Virus record (IMG/VR): IMGVR_UViG_2711768074_000016
Location: 1 to 6,755 of that record
DNA length: 6,755 nt
From: a virus
Taxonomy: Duplodnaviria > Heunggongvirae > Uroviricota > Caudoviricetes
Strand: one strand, 5' to 3'
Under the pieces are notes generated by a model. The model ran no database searches. It was given only the letters and a program-made list of their open reading frames with translations, and was not told the origin of the DNA. Positions 1-6,755 of the stretch are shown piece by piece (position 1 is the first letter of the stretch; every line of letters begins with the position of its first letter). The position numbers and the translations under genes were made by a program.

Positions 1-225
1 CTGTTCAGCGGCAAACCGATCCCCGACAACCGGGAAAACATCACTATTCGTCTGGATGATCACATTCAGTCTGTTCAGGGTAAAGAGAGCTATGAAGATG
101 AGATGTTCAGCATCAGATACTTTAAGAAGGGCTCCGCGCACATCACGTTCAGAAAACCGGAACTGGTTGATCGGCTAAATGACATCATTGCGAAGCATTA
201 TCCGGGGCAACTATCAGCCATCTGA
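1..225 (+). CDS. 3' end of a hypothetical protein (5'-truncated by the window edge); C-terminal 74 aa ...FRKPELVDRLNDIIAKHYPGQLSAI*
   Basis: Open frame 1 runs from the window edge to TGA at 223-225. It is convergent with the minus-strand operon and followed by a hairpin terminator. No family recognised from the fragment. Confidence 0.45.
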   Translation: MFSGKPIPDNRENITIRLDDHIQSVQGKESYEDEMFSIRYFKKGSAHITFRKPELVDRLNDIIAKHYPGQLSAI

Positions 226-243
226 GTCAGATGGAGAAAAAGC

Positions 244-267
244 TTACCTGACCCATTACCTGACCCA
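244..267. repeat. Perfect 12-bp tandem direct repeat (ttacctgaccca x2)
   Basis: Read directly: 244-255 equals 256-267. Lies between the stop of the plus-strand CDS and the terminator hairpin. Confidence 0.7.
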
Positions 268-282
268 ATTCAAAGGCAAAAG

Positions 283-323
283 AAAAAGGGTTAGCTGGTT
301 TATTAGCTAACCCTTTGTTGTAT
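283..323. terminator. Bidirectional intrinsic terminator between the convergent plus-strand gene and the tRNA
   Basis: 9-bp stem gggttagct (288-296) / agctaaccc (305-313) with an 8-nt loop. T-rich on the plus strand after the stem (tttgttgt) and on the minus strand after it (tttttctttt). Confidence 0.5.
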
Positions 324-324
324 A

Positions 325-400
325 TGGTGGCCCCTGCTGGACTTGAACCAGCGACCAAGCGATTATGAGTCGCTCGCTCTCACCACTGAGCTAAAGGGCC
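325..400 (-). tRNA. tRNA with anticodon CAU, tRNA-Ile2 (lysidine-type, ileX/ileZ-like) rather than tRNA-Met; 76 nt including encoded CCA
   Basis: The reverse complement folds as a canonical cloverleaf: acceptor GGCCCTT/AGGGGCC, D-stem GCTC/GAGC, anticodon stem AGCGA/TCGCT with loop CTCATAA, T-stem GCTGG/CCAGC with TTCAAGT loop, then ACCA. It is near-identical to E. coli ileX as I remember it, with a few substitutions typical of prophage copies. Confidence 0.88.
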
Positions 401-440
401 GGGAGCCGCATAATAACGACGCGTAATTAATTCTTCAATA

Positions 441-1499
441 TCATCCGTTCTGGCTGACTAAATCCTGTACTTCCCGAACCGTCTGCTCAAAACGTTCAGT
501 CTCCAGCTCAACGCCAATTGCACGACGCCCGAGCGCCAGTGCCGCTTTCACTGTCGAACCCGACCCCATGAAAAAATCTGCAATCAGGTCACCCGGACGA
601 CTGCTAGCGCTGATTATCTGCTGCAGCATTTCTGCCGGTTTTTCGCACGGATGTTTCCCGGGATAGAACTGCACCGGTTTATGCGTCCACACATCGGTAT
701 ACGGCACCTGCACCGTCACGCCAAAATACCGCCGCAGATGCTTATATTCACTCAGCAGTTCCATATACTGCCGGTTCAGCTCACTGTATGTGCTGACCAG
801 TTGGTAATGGGACTTTTCCAGTTCTCCCCGCTGATGTTTCTCTTCTGCCACCCGGGCAAACAGCGACTGTAATTTCAGATAATCGCTTTCGTTCGGTAGC
901 TGCCACTGACTGGCACTGAACCAGTGCGACACCATGTTTTTCTTTCCTGTGGCATCTGCAATCTGTTTTGCCGTTATCCCCAGGGCCGCGCGCGCATCAC
1001 GAAAGTAAGAAATCAGCGGGGCCATCACATGCTGTTTCAGTGCACTGCCCTTCGCCGCATACCCGGCATCTTTCGGACGATACGGCCCCTGATAATGTTC
1101 CGCGAACAGAATGCGCTCTGTGGCGGGGAAATACGCCCGCAGGCTTTCCTTGTTGCATCCGTTCCAGCGTCCGGACGGCTTCGCCCAGATAATATGGTTC
1201 AGCACACTGAAGCGTTCACGCATCATGATTTCGATATCAGATGCCAGGCGATGACCACAGAACAGGTAAAGACTTCCGGCAGGTTTCAGCACCCGCCAGA
1301 ACTGCGCCAGACACTGGTCCAGCCACTTCAGGTAATCATCGTCGCCCTTCCACTGGTTATCCCAGCCCTCGGGCTTCACTTTAAAGTATGGCGGGTCTGT
1401 GACTATCAGATCGACAGAGTTTTCCGGTAAGGTCTGGATAAATTCCAGGCAATCAGCGTTGATTAACTCACAACTGGATATTTTTACAGTATTAGCCAT
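441..1499 (-). CDS. DNA methyltransferase, beta-class (N6-adenine or N4-cytosine), probable phage orphan methylase, 352 aa
   Basis: Motif IV (VTDPPYF) lies near the N-terminus at residues ~33-39 and the AdoMet-binding motif I (DFFMGSGST) near the C-terminus. That permuted order is characteristic of beta-group amino-methyltransferases. No adjacent restriction endonuclease gene is visible. The RBS is weak. Confidence 0.85.
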   Translation of the reverse strand: MANTVKISSCELINADCLEFIQTLPENSVDLIVTDPPYFKVKPEGWDNQWKGDDDYLKWLDQCLAQFWRVLKPAGSLYLFCGHRLASDIEIMMRERFSVLNHIIWAKPSGRWNGCNKESLRAYFPATERILFAEHYQGPYRPKDAGYAAKGSALKQHVMAPLISYFRDARAALGITAKQIADATGKKNMVSHWFSASQWQLPNESDYLKLQSLFARVAEEKHQRGELEKSHYQLVSTYSELNRQYMELLSEYKHLRRYFGVTVQVPYTDVWTHKPVQFYPGKHPCEKPAEMLQQIISASSRPGDLIADFFMGSGSTVKAALALGRRAIGVELETERFEQTVREVQDLVSQNG

Positions 1500-1649
1500 A
1501 GATCAATAAGCACTTCTCTGATAGGCTCATACCGCTTTTGCGCAAAGCAGATGGGCCTGAGGTTTGCTTGTGACCCCAACGCATGAGCAGATGGCTGGCA
1601 GGTGCCGCTAACACCCACCAGCCGCCCATTACCACAAATAAAAAAGCCT

Positions 1650-1970
1650 TCACTGAGGAAGGCGTCTGTAACAACCGAACTGATAATCTGCCAGACCCGC
1701 CATAACAAGCTGGGTCAGTATTAACTGGCAGCGTTCGCGTGAAAGATAAGTGTTCTGCGCAATTTCCCCGGCGGTCGCCGGTTCGGTGACGCTTAATTCA
1801 TTAAACACCACTCTGGCGGTTTCGGTCATATCCTGCTGTTTTAGCATGCCTTTTTCCATTTTCCGGTTAACGTGACATACCAATAACTCTTGTCGAAAAA
1901 GCCAGCAAGTTGAAAGACCGGTATTAGCAACCACCAGCGCGTTTAACGCCCCGTGCCGTTTTTCAGTCAT
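1650..1970 (-). CDS. Hypothetical protein (106 aa), coding status uncertain; C-terminal half has a helix-turn-helix-like character
   Basis: Longest minus-strand ORF between the Q-like gene and the methylase. Its ATG directly abuts the T-tract of the upstream terminator and has no Shine-Dalgarno. Two alternative-frame ORFs overlap it (1484-1708, 1492-1674). Confidence 0.3.
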   Translation of the reverse strand: MTEKRHGALNALVVANTGLSTCWLFRQELLVCHVNRKMEKGMLKQQDMTETARVVFNELSVTEPATAGEIAQNTYLSRERCQLILTQLVMAGLADYQFGCYRRLPQ

Positions 1971-1999
1971 AAAAAAACCCGCAAAAAGCGGGCTCTTTC
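1971..1999 (-). terminator. Intrinsic terminator immediately downstream of the Q-like gene (tR'-like)
   Basis: On the minus strand: stem cccgc/gcggg with a 5-nt loop followed by seven T residues (gcccgctttttgcgggttttttt). About 80-100 nt downstream of the Q-like stop, matching the short pR'-tR' arrangement of lambdoid phages. Confidence 0.55.
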
Positions 2000-2071
2000 A
2001 AATGTCCATGTCTGCTATTCGCCTCGCGGTACAGCTTTGCGAAGCTTACCGGAATTGAAGCAGTTTTTACG

Positions 2072-2638
2072 TCAAAAAGCAATAACTTTTTTCTCTATAC
2101 CAAAAGCCATAACCATTGGTTTGTACAAAATAAATTCTGCCACCTTTAGCCAATGCTCAATGCGTCTTTCACAGGTTCTTAAACTCCATTCCGGATGTGC
2201 ATCATTCAGCAGTTCAGCCATTTTGCGCTTAGTCATCCCCCGCCCCACATAACGCTGACTCAGAACATTGAGCAGCCCGGGATAACCTGCCAGTACTTCA
2301 CCAATAACCCTGTCGATTATTAACGCCTCTGAATCGGTACAATGTGCCAGCCAGCTTTTTTGATTGCCGTTGATCATATCCCGCAAAAAAGCCTCAAGTT
2401 CAGGTTTGTCCAGACCCGCTTTTTTCATCCTCCGGAGCGCCTCGTTAATTGCCGTTTTTGTCAGCTTTTTAGAGGTCAGTAATTGGTTGAACATATTTCC
2501 CGTCTTACCGTCGCCAATATACGACCAACGCCCCCACATACGCAGTTTCCCCTGGATCCAGACACTTTCCAGCGTTTTCAGGCGTAAATGCTCACCGCTT
2601 TTGCCTGTAATTTCCGGGTATATCATATTTATGCTCAC
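2072..2638 (-). CDS. Putative late-gene antiterminator Q-like protein, 188 aa
   Basis: Position immediately after rusA and before a strong terminator, as in lambdoid nin-Q regions. The LRMWGRW motif resembles the RWGAW motif I recall in Q-like proteins such as DLP12 QuuD. The track start at 2638 is GTG and overlaps the rusA stop; an in-frame ATG at 2626 is an alternative start. Confidence 0.5.
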   Translation of the reverse strand: MSINMIYPEITGKSGEHLRLKTLESVWIQGKLRMWGRWSYIGDGKTGNMFNQLLTSKKLTKTAINEALRRMKKAGLDKPELEAFLRDMINGNQKSWLAHCTDSEALIIDRVIGEVLAGYPGLLNVLSQRYVGRGMTKRKMAELLNDAHPEWSLRTCERRIEHWLKVAEFILYKPMVMAFGIEKKVIAF

Positions 2639-2994
2639 TCACTTTCAATTTTGTAAATCTTCACGCCCAGCCGCCCACCAGAAACGAGCTGACCGCGCAC
2701 AATATTGATTTCATCAAACTGCTCGTCGTCTATAAGTAGTCCGGCATGCGTAAGCGCATCCAGTGGTGCCTTCAGGATATTGTCCAGGTCGCGGCGGCGC
2801 TTATCCGGTGGCTCTGCAATAATCTTTATCGCCAGCCTTCCGGACAGGTTTAATTTCAGCCACTGCTGGCGAACAATAAGTGCCACATCCCGGCGATAAC
2901 GCTCACCGGCTTTTGACACAAAATATGTGCTGCCACGACGTCGCCAGTAGGTGTTCACCGTCGGCGGGTAAGGCAAAACAAACTCTATACGCAT
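2635..2994 (-). CDS. rusA: Crossover junction endodeoxyribonuclease RusA (Holliday junction resolvase), 119 aa
   Basis: The translation has the RusA hallmark RRRDLDN acidic catalytic motif and is collinear with E. coli RusA, which is ~120 aa. Good RBS (aagagg, 6-nt spacer). Stop overlaps the start of the next gene. Confidence 0.9.
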   Translation of the reverse strand: MRIEFVLPYPPTVNTYWRRRGSTYFVSKAGERYRRDVALIVRQQWLKLNLSGRLAIKIIAEPPDKRRRDLDNILKAPLDALTHAGLLIDDEQFDEINIVRGQLVSGGRLGVKIYKIESE

Positions 2995-3006
2995 CAGTAA
3001 CCTCTT

Positions 3007-4056
3007 TTACCCGAGCACGCCGGTTGCAAAGGCGCGATCAAGAAAACGAAAAATTAAATCAATCTGGGAACCATGCTTTTCTTCAAATGCCAGCGGATCA
3101 GCATGAAGTTCGTTGTGATGCTCCCGGCACAACGGTAGCGTGAAAATATCGTGGGCTTTTGTCCCTATTCCGCCCTGACCATGACCAATCAGGTGATGGG
3201 GATCGTCGGCTGGCTTACCACAACACGCACACGGCTGTGTCTTTACCCAGCGCGTATATTTCTCATTTACCCAACGGCGACGTTTAGGTCGCTTCATTAA
3301 AGATTCCGGAGACTCCGGATCAACAGCAATGCTGACCACCGTCTTTTCCTGTGGCGGGTTCTGTTGCTGGTGGGCGTGAGGCAGCGGCGCAAGATTTTTT
3401 GTGCGCTGTTTCAGTATGCTGGTGGCGGTCTGCTCTCCCGGTACGATGTCGCTTTCACGGTACATTGAGCGGATTTTTTCCGCACGCAACCCCAGCGAAC
3501 GACGTAATACCGCTTCCGGTAGCGCGTCCGCCACCTGATTGCGGATCGCCCACCAGGATAATTCAGCCAGCGATAATTCCCGTTCCTGCGAGCCATTCAT
3601 TGCATGGCGTATGACGTCAATCATCCATGCAGACAGGTTTTGGTGAGCAAGTTGCCCGAGTGATTCGGAGGTCTGGTCGCGCAGCTGGTTGTCGCAGTGC
3701 CAGCACAACACCATTGCGCCGGTACCATAACGATGTATGACGGTTTCACTGTGATGGTAGTCACCATGAGGCCACTGGCAGGATTTGACATGACGCAGGA
3801 GCCAGTCAGACAGTGCGCCAGCGCCGCCAGCAGCACGAATCACACGCTCATCGCTGAAAAATGGCAGTAATGATTTATCCTCCGCCAGCGGCTGGCGAAC
3901 GGCAGGGACGACTCCGGACGGCAGACCGCGCATGCTTTTCGGTTCCGGCTCCACCAGCACCCTGCCGCAATGAAAAACCGGCAGTGATTCGCGACCGGGC
4001 TTAAGGACCACCAGCCCGAGTTCCGGTACCAGAACAGGTCGAAGTAATACCCGCAC
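3007..4056 (-). CDS. ydfU: DUF968-family prophage protein (YdfU-like), 349 aa, with a C-terminal Cys/His HNH-like motif
   Basis: Same length and N-terminus (MRVLLRPVLVPELG...) as the Qin prophage YdfU that I recall. C-terminal CACCGKPADDPHHL...CREHHNELH cluster. Tightly packed with both neighbours (1-nt gap to the upstream stop, 12-nt gap to rusA). Confidence 0.8.
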   Translation of the reverse strand: MRVLLRPVLVPELGLVVLKPGRESLPVFHCGRVLVEPEPKSMRGLPSGVVPAVRQPLAEDKSLLPFFSDERVIRAAGGAGALSDWLLRHVKSCQWPHGDYHHSETVIHRYGTGAMVLCWHCDNQLRDQTSESLGQLAHQNLSAWMIDVIRHAMNGSQERELSLAELSWWAIRNQVADALPEAVLRRSLGLRAEKIRSMYRESDIVPGEQTATSILKQRTKNLAPLPHAHQQQNPPQEKTVVSIAVDPESPESLMKRPKRRRWVNEKYTRWVKTQPCACCGKPADDPHHLIGHGQGGIGTKAHDIFTLPLCREHHNELHADPLAFEEKHGSQIDLIFRFLDRAFATGVLG

Positions 4057-4057
4057 G

Positions 4058-4336
4058 TTACCTCCAGATGCGTTGCTGGAATGTGCGGGACAGACGCGGT
4101 GGGCGTTCGGAGTAAGGAAGCCCGACGGAGATTATCCAGTGACGGTAGTCGAGGCTAAGGGCTTTTTTAACCTCGCATCCGCGCCTGCGGTAACACTGAA
4201 TGAGCCATTCGGCCTGTTCTTCAGTGCATGGGGGATGCTGGTACCAGTCTGACTTAAATGCGTGAGAATACCGCTCGTGCGTGTGGGCAAGAACGGTCGA
4301 ATTATCATGATTGTAATATTTTGCGTTGCGTGCCAT
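4058..4336 (-). CDS. Hypothetical prophage protein, 92 aa
   Basis: Strong RBS (GGAGG, 6-nt spacer before ATG at 4336). Stop immediately precedes the DUF968 start, suggesting translational coupling. No family recognised. Confidence 0.6.
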   Translation of the reverse strand: MARNAKYYNHDNSTVLAHTHERYSHAFKSDWYQHPPCTEEQAEWLIQCYRRRGCEVKKALSLDYRHWIISVGLPYSERPPRLSRTFQQRIWR

Positions 4337-4402
4337 CGGTTTCCTCCGGCGGCACGGTGTTACTCAGCGGGAGTTCAGCCCCGCGCAAGATTGTAGATGA
4401 GT

Positions 4403-4654
4403 TTATTCTTCTGAAAAAGCAGAAAAGCCAGCTTTTATTCCGATCTCTTTCAGTGCCTGTAATGAAGTGACAAACTCACCTTCGCGCAAGATAAATCCGT
4501 CTGTCACTCGACCATCCACAAAATTAATTAACGCAGCCCCATTCTTTCGCAAACACACAATGCGGTAATGACTAACAATATTTCCATTTTCAACGCACAC
4601 AGCATAGAGGCCATCTTCACAAAAAATTTTACGCAGTTCTTCGATGTTCATCAT
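4403..4654 (-). CDS. rem: Rem-like small prophage protein, 83 aa
   Basis: Same length, MMNIEELRK N-terminus and position (between hokD and the DUF968 gene) as the Qin prophage rem gene as I recall it. RBS GGAAGG with a 6-nt spacer. Confidence 0.65.
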   Translation of the reverse strand: MMNIEELRKIFCEDGLYAVCVENGNIVSHYRIVCLRKNGAALINFVDGRVTDGFILREGEFVTSLQALKEIGIKAGFSAFSEE

Positions 4655-4770
4655 CAGAATCCTTCCGGATAATTAGCTCTCCCCTTTAAGGGACCATCCC
4701 TCTTATCCCTGCGCGCTACTTAAGTATTTTTGATTCTATTCCGACACCGTCCAGAACTTCAAATGCGTTG

Positions 4771-4800
4771 AAAATAAAAACAAAAACCCGCCGAAGCGGG
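4771..4800 (-). terminator. Intrinsic terminator of the hok mRNA
   Basis: On the minus strand: stem cccgc/gcggg with a 4-nt loop followed by tttttgtttttatttt. About 70 nt downstream of the hok stop. Confidence 0.65.
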
Positions 4801-4870
4801 TTAAGTGCGGGTGCGTTGAGGATGCCTGACACATCAGCGGTGGCGAGGGATTTCTCCCCCGCCTGGTCTC

Positions 4871-5026
4871 TTACTCCTCAGGTTCGTAAGCTGTGAAGAC
4901 AGCGACCTCCGTCTGGCCGGTTCGGATTCGTACCTCGCAGAGGTCTTTCCTCGTTACCAGTGCCGTCACTATGACGGTTAAACAGATGACGATCAGGGCG
5001 ATTAACATCGCCTTTTGCTGCTTCAT
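4871..5026 (-). CDS. hokD: Hok-family type I toxin (HokD/RelF-like), 51 aa
   Basis: The translation MKQQKAMLIALIVICLTVIVTALVTRKDLCEVRIRTGQTEVAVFTAYEPEE matches HokD as I remember it. RBS AAGGAG upstream of ATG at 5026. Single transmembrane helix followed by a periplasmic tail. Confidence 0.85.
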   Translation of the reverse strand: MKQQKAMLIALIVICLTVIVTALVTRKDLCEVRIRTGQTEVAVFTAYEPEE

Positions 5027-5083
5027 AGCCTGCTTCTCCTTGCCTTTCGGCGCGTAAGAGGCTAACCTACGTTTGTGAAGCAT
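4871..5083 (-). CDS. mok-like reading frame: in-frame N-terminal extension of hok (70 aa) that gates hok translation
   Basis: ATG at 5083 with GAGG 8 nt upstream. The 19-aa extension MLHKRRLASYAPKGKEKQA parallels the MokC extension in K-12, which is likewise in frame with its hok. Confidence 0.45.
   Translation of the reverse strand: MLHKRRLASYAPKGKEKQAMKQQKAMLIALIVICLTVIVTALVTRKDLCEVRIRTGQTEVAVFTAYEPEE
5040..5068 (+). promoter_or_regulatory. Candidate promoter for a Sok-like antisense RNA (-35 TTGCCT, 17-bp spacer, -10 TAACCT)
   Basis: Hexamers read on the plus strand inside the mok/hok overlap, positioned so that a transcript would run antisense across the mok start codon and SD. Sequence pattern only. 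Confidence 0.25.
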
Positions 5084-5152
5084 AGATTGGGCCTCAGATT
5101 AATGTTAAGCGTCTTGCAGGACGCGTAATGTTAACTGGGGCTTTTCTCTGTC
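5075..5152 (+). ncRNA. Putative Sok-like antisense RNA complementary to the mok translation initiation region
   Basis: Inferred from the candidate promoter plus a downstream hairpin (gcgtc...gacgc at 5111-5126, enclosed by gcctcag/ctggggc) followed by ttttctc. Ends are not defined. Confidence 0.2.
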
Positions 5153-5237
5153 TGCCTTACGGTGGCATGCCCGAGGCAGACAGCCTCAAGCACCCGCAGC
5201 AATTCTACTTAACTCCCGTCACCTCGCCAATATAAAA

Positions 5238-5327
5238 TCAATCAGAAAGGCGATCCATAAGAACAATAGCAAGACAATAAATTGCCACTACAGCCGCAAT
5301 AGCCAGCGCGCATTTGAGAACCAGCAC
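5238..5327 (-). CDS. Possible small hydrophobic protein, 29 aa (VLVLKCALAIAAVVAIYCLAIVLMDRLSD, GTG start)
   Basis: Consensus AGGAGG Shine-Dalgarno 5 nt upstream of GTG at 5327. Single predicted transmembrane segment with a charged C-terminus. Starts ~70 nt downstream of the SIR2-like gene stop on the same strand. Below the ORF-track size cutoff; unverified. Confidence 0.25.
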   Translation of the reverse strand: MLVLKCALAIAAVVAIYCLAIVLMDRLSD

Positions 5328-5397
5328 GATAACCTCCTGTATTGGACGTACACCAGCTCTGATAAATATGAGGCTGCCTCTTTAACTTCGCATTGCG

Positions 5398-6429
5398 CTA
5401 CCAATCAATAAAATCAGTGATGTTATCCAACCTAATTACAGTAACTTCCCGTCTCAACTGGTTTTTCCAATATATCTCACGAGCGTTTTGTTCACCAGCA
5501 CCGCTCCACTCAATTACTCTTAAAGGCTTAGAGGTTAGGTAAGGTCGAATAAGCAGGTTAAGGTGAATATCGAGACCAGAGTAACCAAACAATATTATTT
5601 CTTCTGATTCAAATAATGCAAACTGCAAATAATCCCAGTACGTAGAAAGAACATTAGATGCTGCTATAACTGACGGTTTTCTTTTTATATGAGTTAACAC
5701 TATATGCTCACTAGGTTCATCTATGTCAAGAGTAAGTTGTGAGCGTGAAAGTTTTAAAACATTTTCATGCTGATTAATAAATAGTGGTGAACCATGCAAG
5801 TGCAAATAATAACCAAACCTACGATTGTATTTCCGTTCGAGCGCTGCAGAGGAAAATCCGTGGCTTAGCATCCCATCAACTAAAACCCCATCATACCCGT
5901 TGAATATATCATTATCTATGAATGAATTGTATAATAATTTGTCATAGTTTAATGTCGCGATATGTGAGTGTGTGTTCTTTACAAACTCCACAAGCGCATT
6001 TTCGAATCTTTGTGGCAAACCTTTATCGTAATTATGCAACCTGGTTGCAACTTTGTGAATATAAGTGGCGGTAATTTTGGGGAAGTTTAGTCCATCTTCA
6101 GTAAGCCAATGCACGTTCCCCTCTCCAATTTGAGCAAGAGCTTTACAATATGTGACAGCCTGGTGAAGGGTATCCAACTCATGTTCTCCTTCTGGTGGAC
6201 CTTGCCGCTGAAGACAACGCTCGATAAGTTGCTTGTGGATATCTTTTAAAAAATTGGGGCGATGCCAAATTTCTTCCAACGCTCTGTCTAAGGAGAAGTG
6301 AGCAGGATCTAAAGCCATACCGAGACCGTTGCCGAATATTATTAATTTTCTTGCCATATAGGGGGACTCATATTGGAATAACGCTGGATAGCGTCGCGCG
6401 ATACGCTTAAGTTTAGGATTAATAGACAT
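5398..6429 (-). CDS. Stand-alone SIR2-like domain protein (SIR2_2/ThsA-like fold), candidate NAD+-depleting antiphage defence effector, 343 aa
   Basis: The translation carries the four SIR2_2-type motifs in the correct order and spacing: a Rossmann glycine-rich loop LIIFGNGLG (res 29-37), TLNYDKLL (res ~158-166, putative catalytic Asn161), LHLHGS (putative catalytic His212, codon at 5794-5796) and ILFGYSGLD (res ~278-287). Compare ThsA: FAGAGLS, TTNYDRL, MHGD, LFVGFSFTD. The gene is AT-rich with many rare ATA and AGA/AGG codons. The start is uncertain: 6429 has a weak RBS and the in-frame ATG at 6357 is an alternative. Confidence 0.6.
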   Translation of the reverse strand: MSINPKLKRIARRYPALFQYESPYMARKLIIFGNGLGMALDPAHFSLDRALEEIWHRPNFLKDIHKQLIERCLQRQGPPEGEHELDTLHQAVTYCKALAQIGEGNVHWLTEDGLNFPKITATYIHKVATRLHNYDKGLPQRFENALVEFVKNTHSHIATLNYDKLLYNSFIDNDIFNGYDGVLVDGMLSHGFSSAALERKYNRRFGYYLHLHGSPLFINQHENVLKLSRSQLTLDIDEPSEHIVLTHIKRKPSVIAASNVLSTYWDYLQFALFESEEIILFGYSGLDIHLNLLIRPYLTSKPLRVIEWSGAGEQNAREIYWKNQLRREVTVIRLDNITDFIDW

Positions 6430-6651
6430 TCCGTTTGATTACTCTTGTTATTACAAACTTGCATGCAAAGAAGCCCAAGCTGTTAGGTAAACAGAGACCG
6501 CAGTGGCAAGATAATCTAGATATAGCCTATAAAATCCAACAACAAATAGCGGCCTGTTTTCTATGACTTTTCTTTTCCCTAAATATCGCTTATCTAATAA
6601 AATGCAATAATGTATTGCACAGTATTTAATGTGTATTAATATAGATAAGTA

Positions 6652-6755
6652 GGTGATGCTGCCAACTTACTGATTTAGTGTATGATGGTGTTTTTGAGGT
6701 GCTCCAGTGGCTTCTGTTTCTATCAGCTGTCCCTCCTGTTCAGCTACTGACGGGG
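6652..6755 (+). mobile_element. IS1 insertion sequence, left end (partial; continues beyond the window)
   Basis: The canonical IS1 left inverted repeat GGTGATGCTGCCAACTTACTGAT starts at 6652 and is followed by sequence identical to the IS1 5' region as I recall it. Confidence 0.9.
6707..6755 (+). CDS. insA: IS1 InsA, N-terminal fragment (3'-truncated by the window edge)
   Basis: GTG at 6707 followed by codons for ASVSISCPSCSATDG, the InsA N-terminus. Confidence 0.8.
   Translation, partial: MASVSISCPSCSATDG

Follow-up and report, generated by a model that had tools for sequence, protein, structure and literature searches.

How did a single AT-rich gene for a SIR2-like protein come to stand beside an insertion sequence in a lambdoid prophage, and what might it do there? 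The question is raised by a stretch of 6,755 nucleotides of viral DNA (Caudoviricetes; IMG/VR record IMGVR_UViG_2711768074_000016, positions 1 to 6,755), which we call the window throughout. A first-pass annotation, made from the sequence letters, had described positions 5230-6651, the SIR2-like gene with its flanks, as compositionally foreign cargo, bounded by IS1 and recently acquired from a donor of lower G+C content. The explanation that we favor, and hold to be probable as a whole with real room for doubt, is that the gene belongs to a self-contained 1,368-bp moron encoding a one-gene anti-phage SIR2 defense, that its composition is long-standing, and that the IS1 arrived later. The features on which the argument turns are, in window coordinates:

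4871-5083, minus strand: hokD/mok toxin gene (Pfam HOK_GEF, E = 3e-23)
5021-5195: sok antisense/leader region (Rfam sok, 116 bits)
5229-5380, minus strand: spacer, moderately AT-rich (43.4% G+C), outside the SIR2 cassette
5381-6651, minus strand: the part of the SIR2 cassette that lies inside the window, 38.1% G+C (blastn against sibling prophages)
5398-6429, minus strand: SIR2-like open reading frame (ORF) of 343 codons
5398-6357, minus strand: likely SIR2 coding sequence, 319 amino acids, a stand-alone SIR2 (SIR2_2)
6358-6651, minus strand: cassette upstream region left in the window, 35.4% G+C, shortened by IS1
6430-6651: non-coding AT-rich stretch 5' of the 343-codon ORF
6652-6755, plus strand: left end of IS1, comprising the terminal inverted repeat and the start of insA, reading away from the SIR2 gene

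The compositional part of the earlier description was borne out by computation. The G+C content is 38.7% over 5230-6651 and falls to 32.9% over 6430-6651, compared with 51.3% over 324-5229, so the block is AT-rich relative to the nin/Q genes and most so in its last part. The 343-codon ORF has 39.1% G+C (49, 34, and 35% at the first, second, and third codon positions, GC1 to GC3, with GC3 at 34.7%), and the exact codon counts (ATA, 11; AGA, 6; AGG, 3) match the approximate numbers given before, about eleven ATA and nine AGA/AGG. As the uninterrupted reference we used the IS1-free prophage of E. coli O111:H2 12A (locus L001), to which window positions 324-6651 are 99.9% identical and positions 5381-6651 are 100% identical. 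When all 1,368-bp windows of this 40.6-kb prophage were compared (mean 52.3% G+C, standard deviation 4.4%), the 1,368-bp cassette (NZ_CP077479.1, 3371110-3372477), at 38.1%, was the minimum. Codon usage was compared with 41 other genes of the 12A prophage and with 40 host genes of strain 12A, the latter serving also to train the codon-adaptation index. ATA makes up 11 of the 25 Ile codons of the cassette gene (44%), versus 58/446 (13%) in the other prophage genes (Fisher p = 2.6e-4) and 36/627 (5.7%) in the host genes (p = 1.8e-7); AGA and AGG together make up 9 of its 18 Arg codons (50%), versus 100/585 (17%) in the prophage (Fisher p = 1.7e-3) and 19/692 (2.7%) in the host (p = 2.2e-9). The codon-adaptation index is 0.49 for the SIR2 gene, with means of 0.62 for the prophage and 0.71 for the host. 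In G+C content and in codon usage, the cassette deviates significantly from both prophage and host. Three observations temper the view that this composition is exceptional: at the level of whole genes the G+C deviation is moderate (z about -2.2); some small prophage genes are similarly AT-rich (rem, 39.7% G+C; dicB, 37.6%; a 112-amino-acid gene, 36.3%), a caveat to the outlier status of SIR2; and the prophage overall already uses ATA and AGA/AGG above the host level. The 112-amino-acid gene, a hypothetical gene that adjoins tail gene J in the sibling prophage (L041 762-1100), is lower in G+C than the SIR2 gene, with a GC3 of 24%, and probably represents a further accessory element inserted into that prophage.

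The extent of the inserted unit was defined by comparison with sibling prophages. The cassette occupies 1,368 bp, from window position 5381 to the window-equivalent position 6748, and consists of a single gene and a 391-bp AT-rich upstream region (L001 12035-12425), which is 80% identical between the two alleles described below. On the left, homology with strain SLK172 (L002), whose prophage carries other cargo, ends at window position 5380 by blastn; this junction, 5380/5381, which reads ...GAGGCTGCCTC on its outer side and TTTAACTTCGCATTG on its inner side, is separated from the SIR2 stop codon by only about 15 bp. On the right, the SLK172 homology restarts at L001 12426, 49 bp past the 3' end of the DUF977 gene, which places the right junction at window-equivalent 6748/6749. 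The compositional boundary had been placed at around 5230-5400. A G+C change-point is indeed found at 5228, with a score reached in none of 200 shuffles, but the edge of the cassette as judged by homology is 5380/5381, and because the spacer from 5229 to 5380 is common to SLK172-type prophages bearing other cargo, it lies outside the cassette. In strain 2013C-4974 the homology breaks earlier, at 5267. A search for flanking repeats at the cassette junctions gave nothing beyond a 12-nucleotide imperfect direct repeat, CTCTTTAA(C/T)TTC, at L001 11055-11066 and 12447-12458 (window 5378-5389 and window-equivalent 6770-6781); the first copy falls precisely on the left junction, the second is set 22 bp beyond the right one, and the pair may represent micro-homology used in recombination or a coincidence. 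The sole sigma-70-like site found upstream of the SIR2 gene (TTGACA, 18 nucleotides, AAAAAT; L001 12428-12399) lies at the right junction. No convincing terminator was found downstream of the gene.

The IS1 end that abuts the AT-rich region at 6652 is 98.3% identical to IS1-family-annotated sequences in 4,963 E. coli genomes, and its position beside the block would be expected if an IS1 composite transposon, or IS1-mediated recombination, had brought in the cargo, with IS1 as its boundary. Insertion sequences of other kinds beside the cassette in other lineages, an IS481 and an ISEsa1 remnant, also favor such a history. The position of the insertion argues against it. Homology with IS1-free prophages is unbroken up to the insertion point, 6651/6652, where it ends, and in those prophages the cassette runs on for 97 bp more; the insertion point is thus inside the cassette upstream region, 294 bp 5' of the likely start codon. 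When the exact IS1 junction was sought in 64 fetched loci, it was absent from all of them; the 46 complete E. coli genomes with the cassette, and E. albertii, lack it. A composite transposon, moreover, needs two flanking IS1 copies, whereas a single IS1 end is visible in the window. For these reasons we give almost no credence to delivery by IS1; the proposal that the block is bounded by IS1 did not hold, and on these alignments we take the IS1 to be a later, genome-specific insertion and not a cassette boundary. Because the promoter-like site lies beyond the insertion point, IS1 stands between the SIR2 gene and both this candidate promoter and read-through from the replication operon, and expression of the gene may be altered in the window genome. 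The -10 element of the candidate promoter is not kept in the second allele, a point that counts against the favored explanation. Three insertion sequences altogether (IS1 at 6652, IS481 at L039 5616-6689, and the ISEsa1 remnant at L037 5409-6479) lie in or beside the cassette in three lineages, which suggests that the region tolerates or attracts them.

What the cassette occupies is a variable slot between the last gene of the replication module (DUF977) on one side and hokD/sok on the other, the hokD/sok locus (4871-5195) forming its conserved left flank. The slot holds the SIR2 cassette in strain 12A, in O55:H7 CB9615, and in Stx2e prophages of enterotoxigenic E. coli (ETEC). In SLK172 it holds a hypothetical gene, an S-adenosylmethionine (SAM)-dependent methyltransferase, and a SMEK-domain fragment; in 2013C-4974, a Septu system (PtuA, E = 1e-165; PtuB, E = 1e-83); and in KSC1031 (L037), the second SIR2 allele followed by the ISEsa1 remnant and then by a K-12-type ydfW-flxA-ydfV-relBE block. 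In each of the five contexts that we inspected, the cassette had the DUF977 gene as its neighbor. Of 5,426 complete E. coli genomes, 46 carry the cassette, each with one chromosomal copy, and it is also present in E. albertii and in 13 IMG/VR prophage contigs; carriers include enteropathogenic E. coli (EPEC) and ETEC strains and Stx2e prophages. The SIR2 block is therefore ordinary accessory cargo, a 'moron', of a Qin/Rac/Stx2e-type lambdoid prophage, set in a variable slot. The idea of mobile foreign cargo is upheld by this scattered distribution, by the unrelated genes found in the slot of sibling prophages, and by the deviant G+C content and codon use. The papers that we searched contained no description of the DUF977-hokD slot in Qin/Rac/Stx2e-type prophages.

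Two further variable sites were observed nearby. A second slot, between a 92-amino-acid ORF and hokD (window 4337-4870), holds rem (39.7% G+C) in the window; in SLK172 (L002 9080-11232) it holds another small gene and the pair RmrT/RmrA (RosmerTA; PADLOC E = 5e-25 and 6e-105), a pair present by annotation in O55:H7 CB9615 as well. A recurrent insertion point lies at window 5035-5040, in the mok/hok leader: here the IS481 of the ETEC Stx2e prophages (L039 5616-6689) is inserted, and at the same point in KSC1031 (L037 3253 and 6554) the relBE-ydfV-flxA-ydfW block splits the hokD coding region from a second copy of the sok region, 84% identical.

The age of the acquisition can be judged from the two alleles of the gene, which are represented among the 46 carriers by 30 genomes at 99% identity or more and by 16 at about 87.5%. 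The two SIR2 coding sequences are 89.5% identical and have the same junctions, and adjacent genes have diverged to a similar degree (DUF977, 91.7%; replication, 93.7%; YdaT, 90.0%), so we concluded that the cassette was inherited together with the replication module and that its acquisition was not recent. Both alleles still have about 39-41% G+C. The codon differences between them, 53 synonymous and 34 non-synonymous, indicate that the gene has been under purifying selection. That the SIR2 and replication genes diverged alike is difficult to reconcile with the claim of recent acquisition from a lower-G+C donor, in which the composition would not yet have drifted to that of the host. The strong G+C and codon deviation from host and prophage speaks for that claim, as does the match between gene and flanks in some low-G+C hosts (33-36%: Psychromonas, Pseudoalteromonas, Psychrobacter, and a Francisellaceae genome). 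Against the donor part of the claim stands the composition of the family at large. Among 26 non-redundant loci of other bacteria, 24 have a homologue whose G+C content is below that of its flanks, with a mean difference of -8.3 points (Wilcoxon p = 1.2e-5) and a slope of gene G+C on flank G+C of 0.43 over the 26 loci; this holds even in hosts of 60-65% G+C, for example in Klebsiella pneumoniae, where the copy has 37.6% G+C and forms a sharply bounded 1.7-kb islet in DNA of 60%, and in Pseudomonas, where the copy has 43% and its flanks 64-65%. Outside Escherichia, the closest proteins (80-82% identity) belong to Pantoea, Serratia, and Citrobacter, none of them a low-G+C taxon. The bias also lowers GC1 and GC2 and so extends to the amino-acid composition, as an old bias would. 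Low G+C with a bias toward ATA, AGA, and AGG is a standing trait of this mobile SIR2 family across its hosts, and because the family is AT-rich relative to its flanks in nearly every locus, no particular low-G+C donor can be inferred. A recent acquisition from such a donor is, in our judgment, unlikely.

Which protein the gene encodes depends in part on its start. The in-frame ATG at 6429 gives 343 amino acids and the start at 6357 gives 319; relatives in more than 20 genera have 319-325 amino acids and begin at MARKLIIFGNGLG, and because of this length and N-terminus the likely start is 6357. The 343-residue frame is less likely: its 24-residue extension is identical at 15 of 24 positions between the alleles, versus 89% elsewhere, and is missing in all other genera. 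The family is small and uniform: a set of 1.84 billion representative proteins contains 344 clusters of it at 50% identity, and lengths in the best 150 of these 344 run from 135 to 397 amino acids. The relatives from Vibrio parahaemolyticus and V. aestuarianus (P0042 and P0044) have an extra 190-220 N-terminal residues, which are alike in the two proteins and match nothing in Pfam; they might represent either a fused sensor domain or an upstream gene called in error as part of the protein.

Proteins with the sirtuin fold are recognized by a Rossmann-type SIR2 fold with a glycine loop, an Asn motif resembling TQNID, and an HG motif with its His. The RefSeq annotation of the gene is already 'SIR2 family protein', and Pfam SIR2_2 (PF13289) matches the window protein marginally (26.3 bits; cut-off 24.5); all of 23 relatives match it too. 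A confident AlphaFold2 model built from 23 sequences (predicted local distance difference test score, pLDDT, 82.5; predicted template-modeling score, pTM, 0.84) has its closest fold in the SIR2 protein of SIR2-HerA and is nearer to anti-phage SIR2 proteins than to classical sirtuins. Three motifs, GNGLGM (glycine loop), TLNYD (Asn), and HLHGS (His), are invariant or nearly so in the 23 relatives, which are 57-89% identical; we take them to correspond to the sirtuin motifs GAGxS, TQNID, and HG, a correspondence that the start of the SIR2_2 alignment, at residue 132, supports. The window protein has only two cysteines and therefore lacks the zinc module of four cysteines (Cys4). The gene product is thus a single-domain member of the SIR2/sirtuin superfamily, of the immunity-type branch (SIR2_2, 'SIRim'), which its zinc-free architecture fits (bioRxiv 10.1101/2024.09.18.613514; PMC12700824). 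A classical sirtuin deacylase of the CobB/Sir2 type was considered and rejected on architecture, the Cys4 module being absent. No named defense family could be assigned by sequence, because a profile of the 23 relatives had no meaningful match among all Protein Data Bank (PDB) sequences, a search of NCBIfam gave no match, and PADLOC matches reached at most 24 bits.

From the observed fold, motifs, and stand-alone architecture, the mobile and defense-rich context, and purifying selection, we infer the putative activity, trigger, activation mode, and phage-resistance phenotype of the SIR2 protein as follows. Infection by a superinfecting phage would be sensed, upon which the protein would hydrolyze nicotinamide adenine dinucleotide (NAD+); the loss of NAD+ would abort the infection and thereby protect the lysogen population. 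Depletion of NAD+ is how anti-phage SIR2 proteins act, and oligomerization often switches them on, with ThsA, Avs5, and FAM118B as precedents for self-assembly (PMC12700824). We propose that self-assembly, not a partner protein, would be the activating step here, because no partner gene is conserved: an all-against-all blastp comparison of ORFs within 5 kb at 24 loci yielded no neighbor common to more than 3 of the 24, and the prophage annotation includes no HerA, TIR, or prokaryotic Argonaute (pAgo) gene, so the protein presumably acts alone or with host or phage factors. The surroundings of the relatives are consistent with a defensive role, as is the Septu system in the slot of a sibling prophage. 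The SIR2_2/SIRim branch is about 12-fold enriched in defense neighborhoods (bioRxiv 10.1101/2024.09.18.613514); within the present family, the Serratia copy has a PDC-M36A-like gene on one side and SoFic (E = 4e-119) on the other, 3 loci have type I restriction genes next to the copy, and a scan of 121 neighboring ORFs gave matches to GajB (8e-186), AbiEi, PbeA, and HEC-05. Distant members stand in differing phage slots: by terminase and portal genes, by an endolysin gene, and by a tail fiber gene with a methyltransferase.

Several points weigh against a defensive NADase. The PADLOC scores given above are a weak sequence link to known defense families; a literature search on this SIR2 family (RefSeq protein accessions, PDC-S21) returned no paper or experiment on it; no sensor domain or trigger is evident in the protein; and the Klebsiella copy lies amid ordinary chromosomal genes and in no defense island. 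In addition, SliP of Campylobacter jejuni, from the weakly related DUF4917 family, is reported to be a secreted, active sirtuin-like deacetylase (PMC10421069). The protein might instead modify host or bacterial proteins, as a deacylase or an ADP-ribosyltransferase, and serve as a lysogen or virulence trait in the manner of SliP. In keeping with this, 18 of the 23 relatives match DUF4917 (PF16263) weakly (best E = 7e-8), EPEC, ETEC, and Stx2e prophages are among the carriers, and conservation across genera (56-89% identity) is unusually high for a defense gene. The window protein itself, however, has no DUF4917 match at E ≤ 0.01 and is without the zinc module, in structure it is matched best by anti-phage SIR2 proteins, environmental or marine bacteria are numerous among the carriers, and the neighborhoods of the relatives are rich in defense genes. 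A SliP-like role is therefore unlikely in our estimate, and an anti-phage NADase the better account.

The remaining genes of the window concern the prophage setting. All genes up to and including SIR2 are on the minus strand and represent the early-right and nin region of a lambdoid (Qin/Rac-type) prophage:

1-225: C-terminus of a DUF4942 protein (3' end of the gene)
325-400, minus strand: transfer RNA (tRNA) with CAU anticodon (ARAGORN and Rfam; an identical gene is annotated in RefSeq as tRNA-Ile, the reader of ATA)
441-1499, minus strand: DNA methyltransferase
2072-2638, minus strand: DUF1133/Q-like antiterminator
2635-2994, minus strand: rusA
3007-4056, minus strand: DUF968 gene
4403-4654, minus strand: rem

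Between sok and the SIR2 cassette we also noted an unannotated hydrophobic ORF of 29 amino acids (5238-5327, minus strand; VLVLKCALAIAAVVAIYCLAIVLMDRLSD) with a GTG start 5 nucleotides past AGGAGG. It stays hydrophobic in SLK172 (L002; 3 conservative changes) and in KSC1031 (L037; 78% nucleotide identity), and on sequence grounds it could be a candidate small membrane protein or type I toxin.

The tRNA genes bear on when the SIR2 gene might be translated. The sibling prophage encodes three, tRNA-Ile (CAU), tRNA-Arg (UCG), and tRNA-Arg (UCU), at L001 5828-6077, about 5 kb downstream of the SIR2 gene; the window keeps only the CAU tRNA, the two Arg tRNAs being replaced by the 3' end of the DUF4942 gene. 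The codons decoded by CAU (ATA) and by UCU (AGA/AGG) are those that the cassette uses in excess, as the prophage overall does to a lesser degree. Prophage tRNAs for ATA, AGA, and CGA/CGG would aid translation mainly after induction. Together with the orientation of the SIR2 gene, which is that of the early-right operon and directly 3' of the replication genes, so that lytic expression for the benefit of the phage is conceivable, and with the lack of any conserved promoter among the upstream sites found, this favors a reading other than defense of the lysogen: the gene might serve the phage during lytic growth, by manipulating NAD+ or nucleotide signals, by counter-defense, or by excluding rivals after induction only. 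Yet a tblastn search of 50,697 phage records gave no match to the gene, nor did the viral structure library BFVD at E ≤ 0.001; among plasmid records there was one distant match, from Marinobacter, at 37% identity. Many relatives reside in non-phage chromosomal islets or in defense islands, and an AT-rich upstream region of 391 bp is usual for an accessory gene under its own regulation. We regard a purely lytic role as quite improbable and retain the anti-phage defense of the lysogen as the preferred explanation.

A more speculative extension, to which we would give an outside chance, is that the family represents a minimal, partner-less immune module, in which a domain of about 320 residues would both sense infection and destroy NAD+, perhaps in filaments like those of FAM118B. 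Its AT-richness, which persists even at 60-65% genomic G+C, might then be maintained for regulation, for example by H-NS-family proteins silencing a toxic NADase until infection, and would be no relic of its origin.

Two lessons and two leads come from this locus. Low G+C and rare codons in a block of prophage DNA do not by themselves signify recent transfer from a low-G+C donor, and an insertion sequence next to such a block is not necessarily its vehicle; comparison with sibling prophages reveals the true unit and its history. The DUF977-hokD slot is a lead for defense biology, since Septu and toxin-antitoxin genes occur in place of or beside SIR2, and RosmerTA occurs in the neighboring slot beyond hokD. 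The second lead is the stand-alone SIR2 family itself, a rare, well-conserved, and uncharacterized group that could be the simplest of the NAD+-depleting defenses. Neither lead would surprise a specialist, and the interest is modest: a candidate minimal NADase defense and a pointer to a cargo slot.

Among known systems, the closest in fold is SIR2-HerA (Nezha; PDB 8w9l, 8yhx, 8j4u, 8sub), whose SIR2 protein is 14-15% identical to the window protein, is 40-90 residues longer, and is not linked to it by profile search. Membership in this system was ruled out, as no HerA ATPase gene is adjacent; neither the annotation of the prophage nor the neighborhoods of 24 relatives include one. Thoeris ThsA, DSR1/DSR2, Avs5, and the short-Argonaute SIR2 proteins all have a fused sensor or ligand domain (SLOG or Macro, STAND, large helical domains, or APAZ) or an obligatory partner (ThsB or pAgo), whereas the window protein is the catalytic domain alone. 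Thoeris (ThsA/ThsB) was ruled out by the single 319-residue domain, the lack of a conserved neighbor, and the absence of a ThsA match in PADLOC; DSR1/DSR2 and Avs5, of more than 750-1,000 residues, by the length of 319 residues and by the upper limit of 397 among the best 150 of the 344 family clusters; and SPARSA by a PADLOC match to Aga_SIR2 that was weak (24 bits) and by the lack of a pAgo neighbor. DUF4917/SliP proteins share with the window protein a small, single-domain, SIR2-like build, but the reported role of SliP as a secreted deacetylase (PMC10421069) is without support for the window protein. Human FAM118B/FAM118A (PDB 9r0p) are likewise single-domain and of the immunity type and form filaments, with 13-17% identity to the window protein, which is known from its sequence and a model; unlike it, the FAM118 proteins are vertebrate-specific and work as a paralogue pair. 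As an element, finally, the cassette resembles the morons and defense hotspots described for P2/P4 (PMC9122126) and for E. coli prophages (PMC9519451) in being a discrete insertion of deviant composition between conserved phage genes, with alternative cargo at the same site in sibling phages and known defense systems (Septu, RosmerTA, and toxin-antitoxin) among the alternatives.

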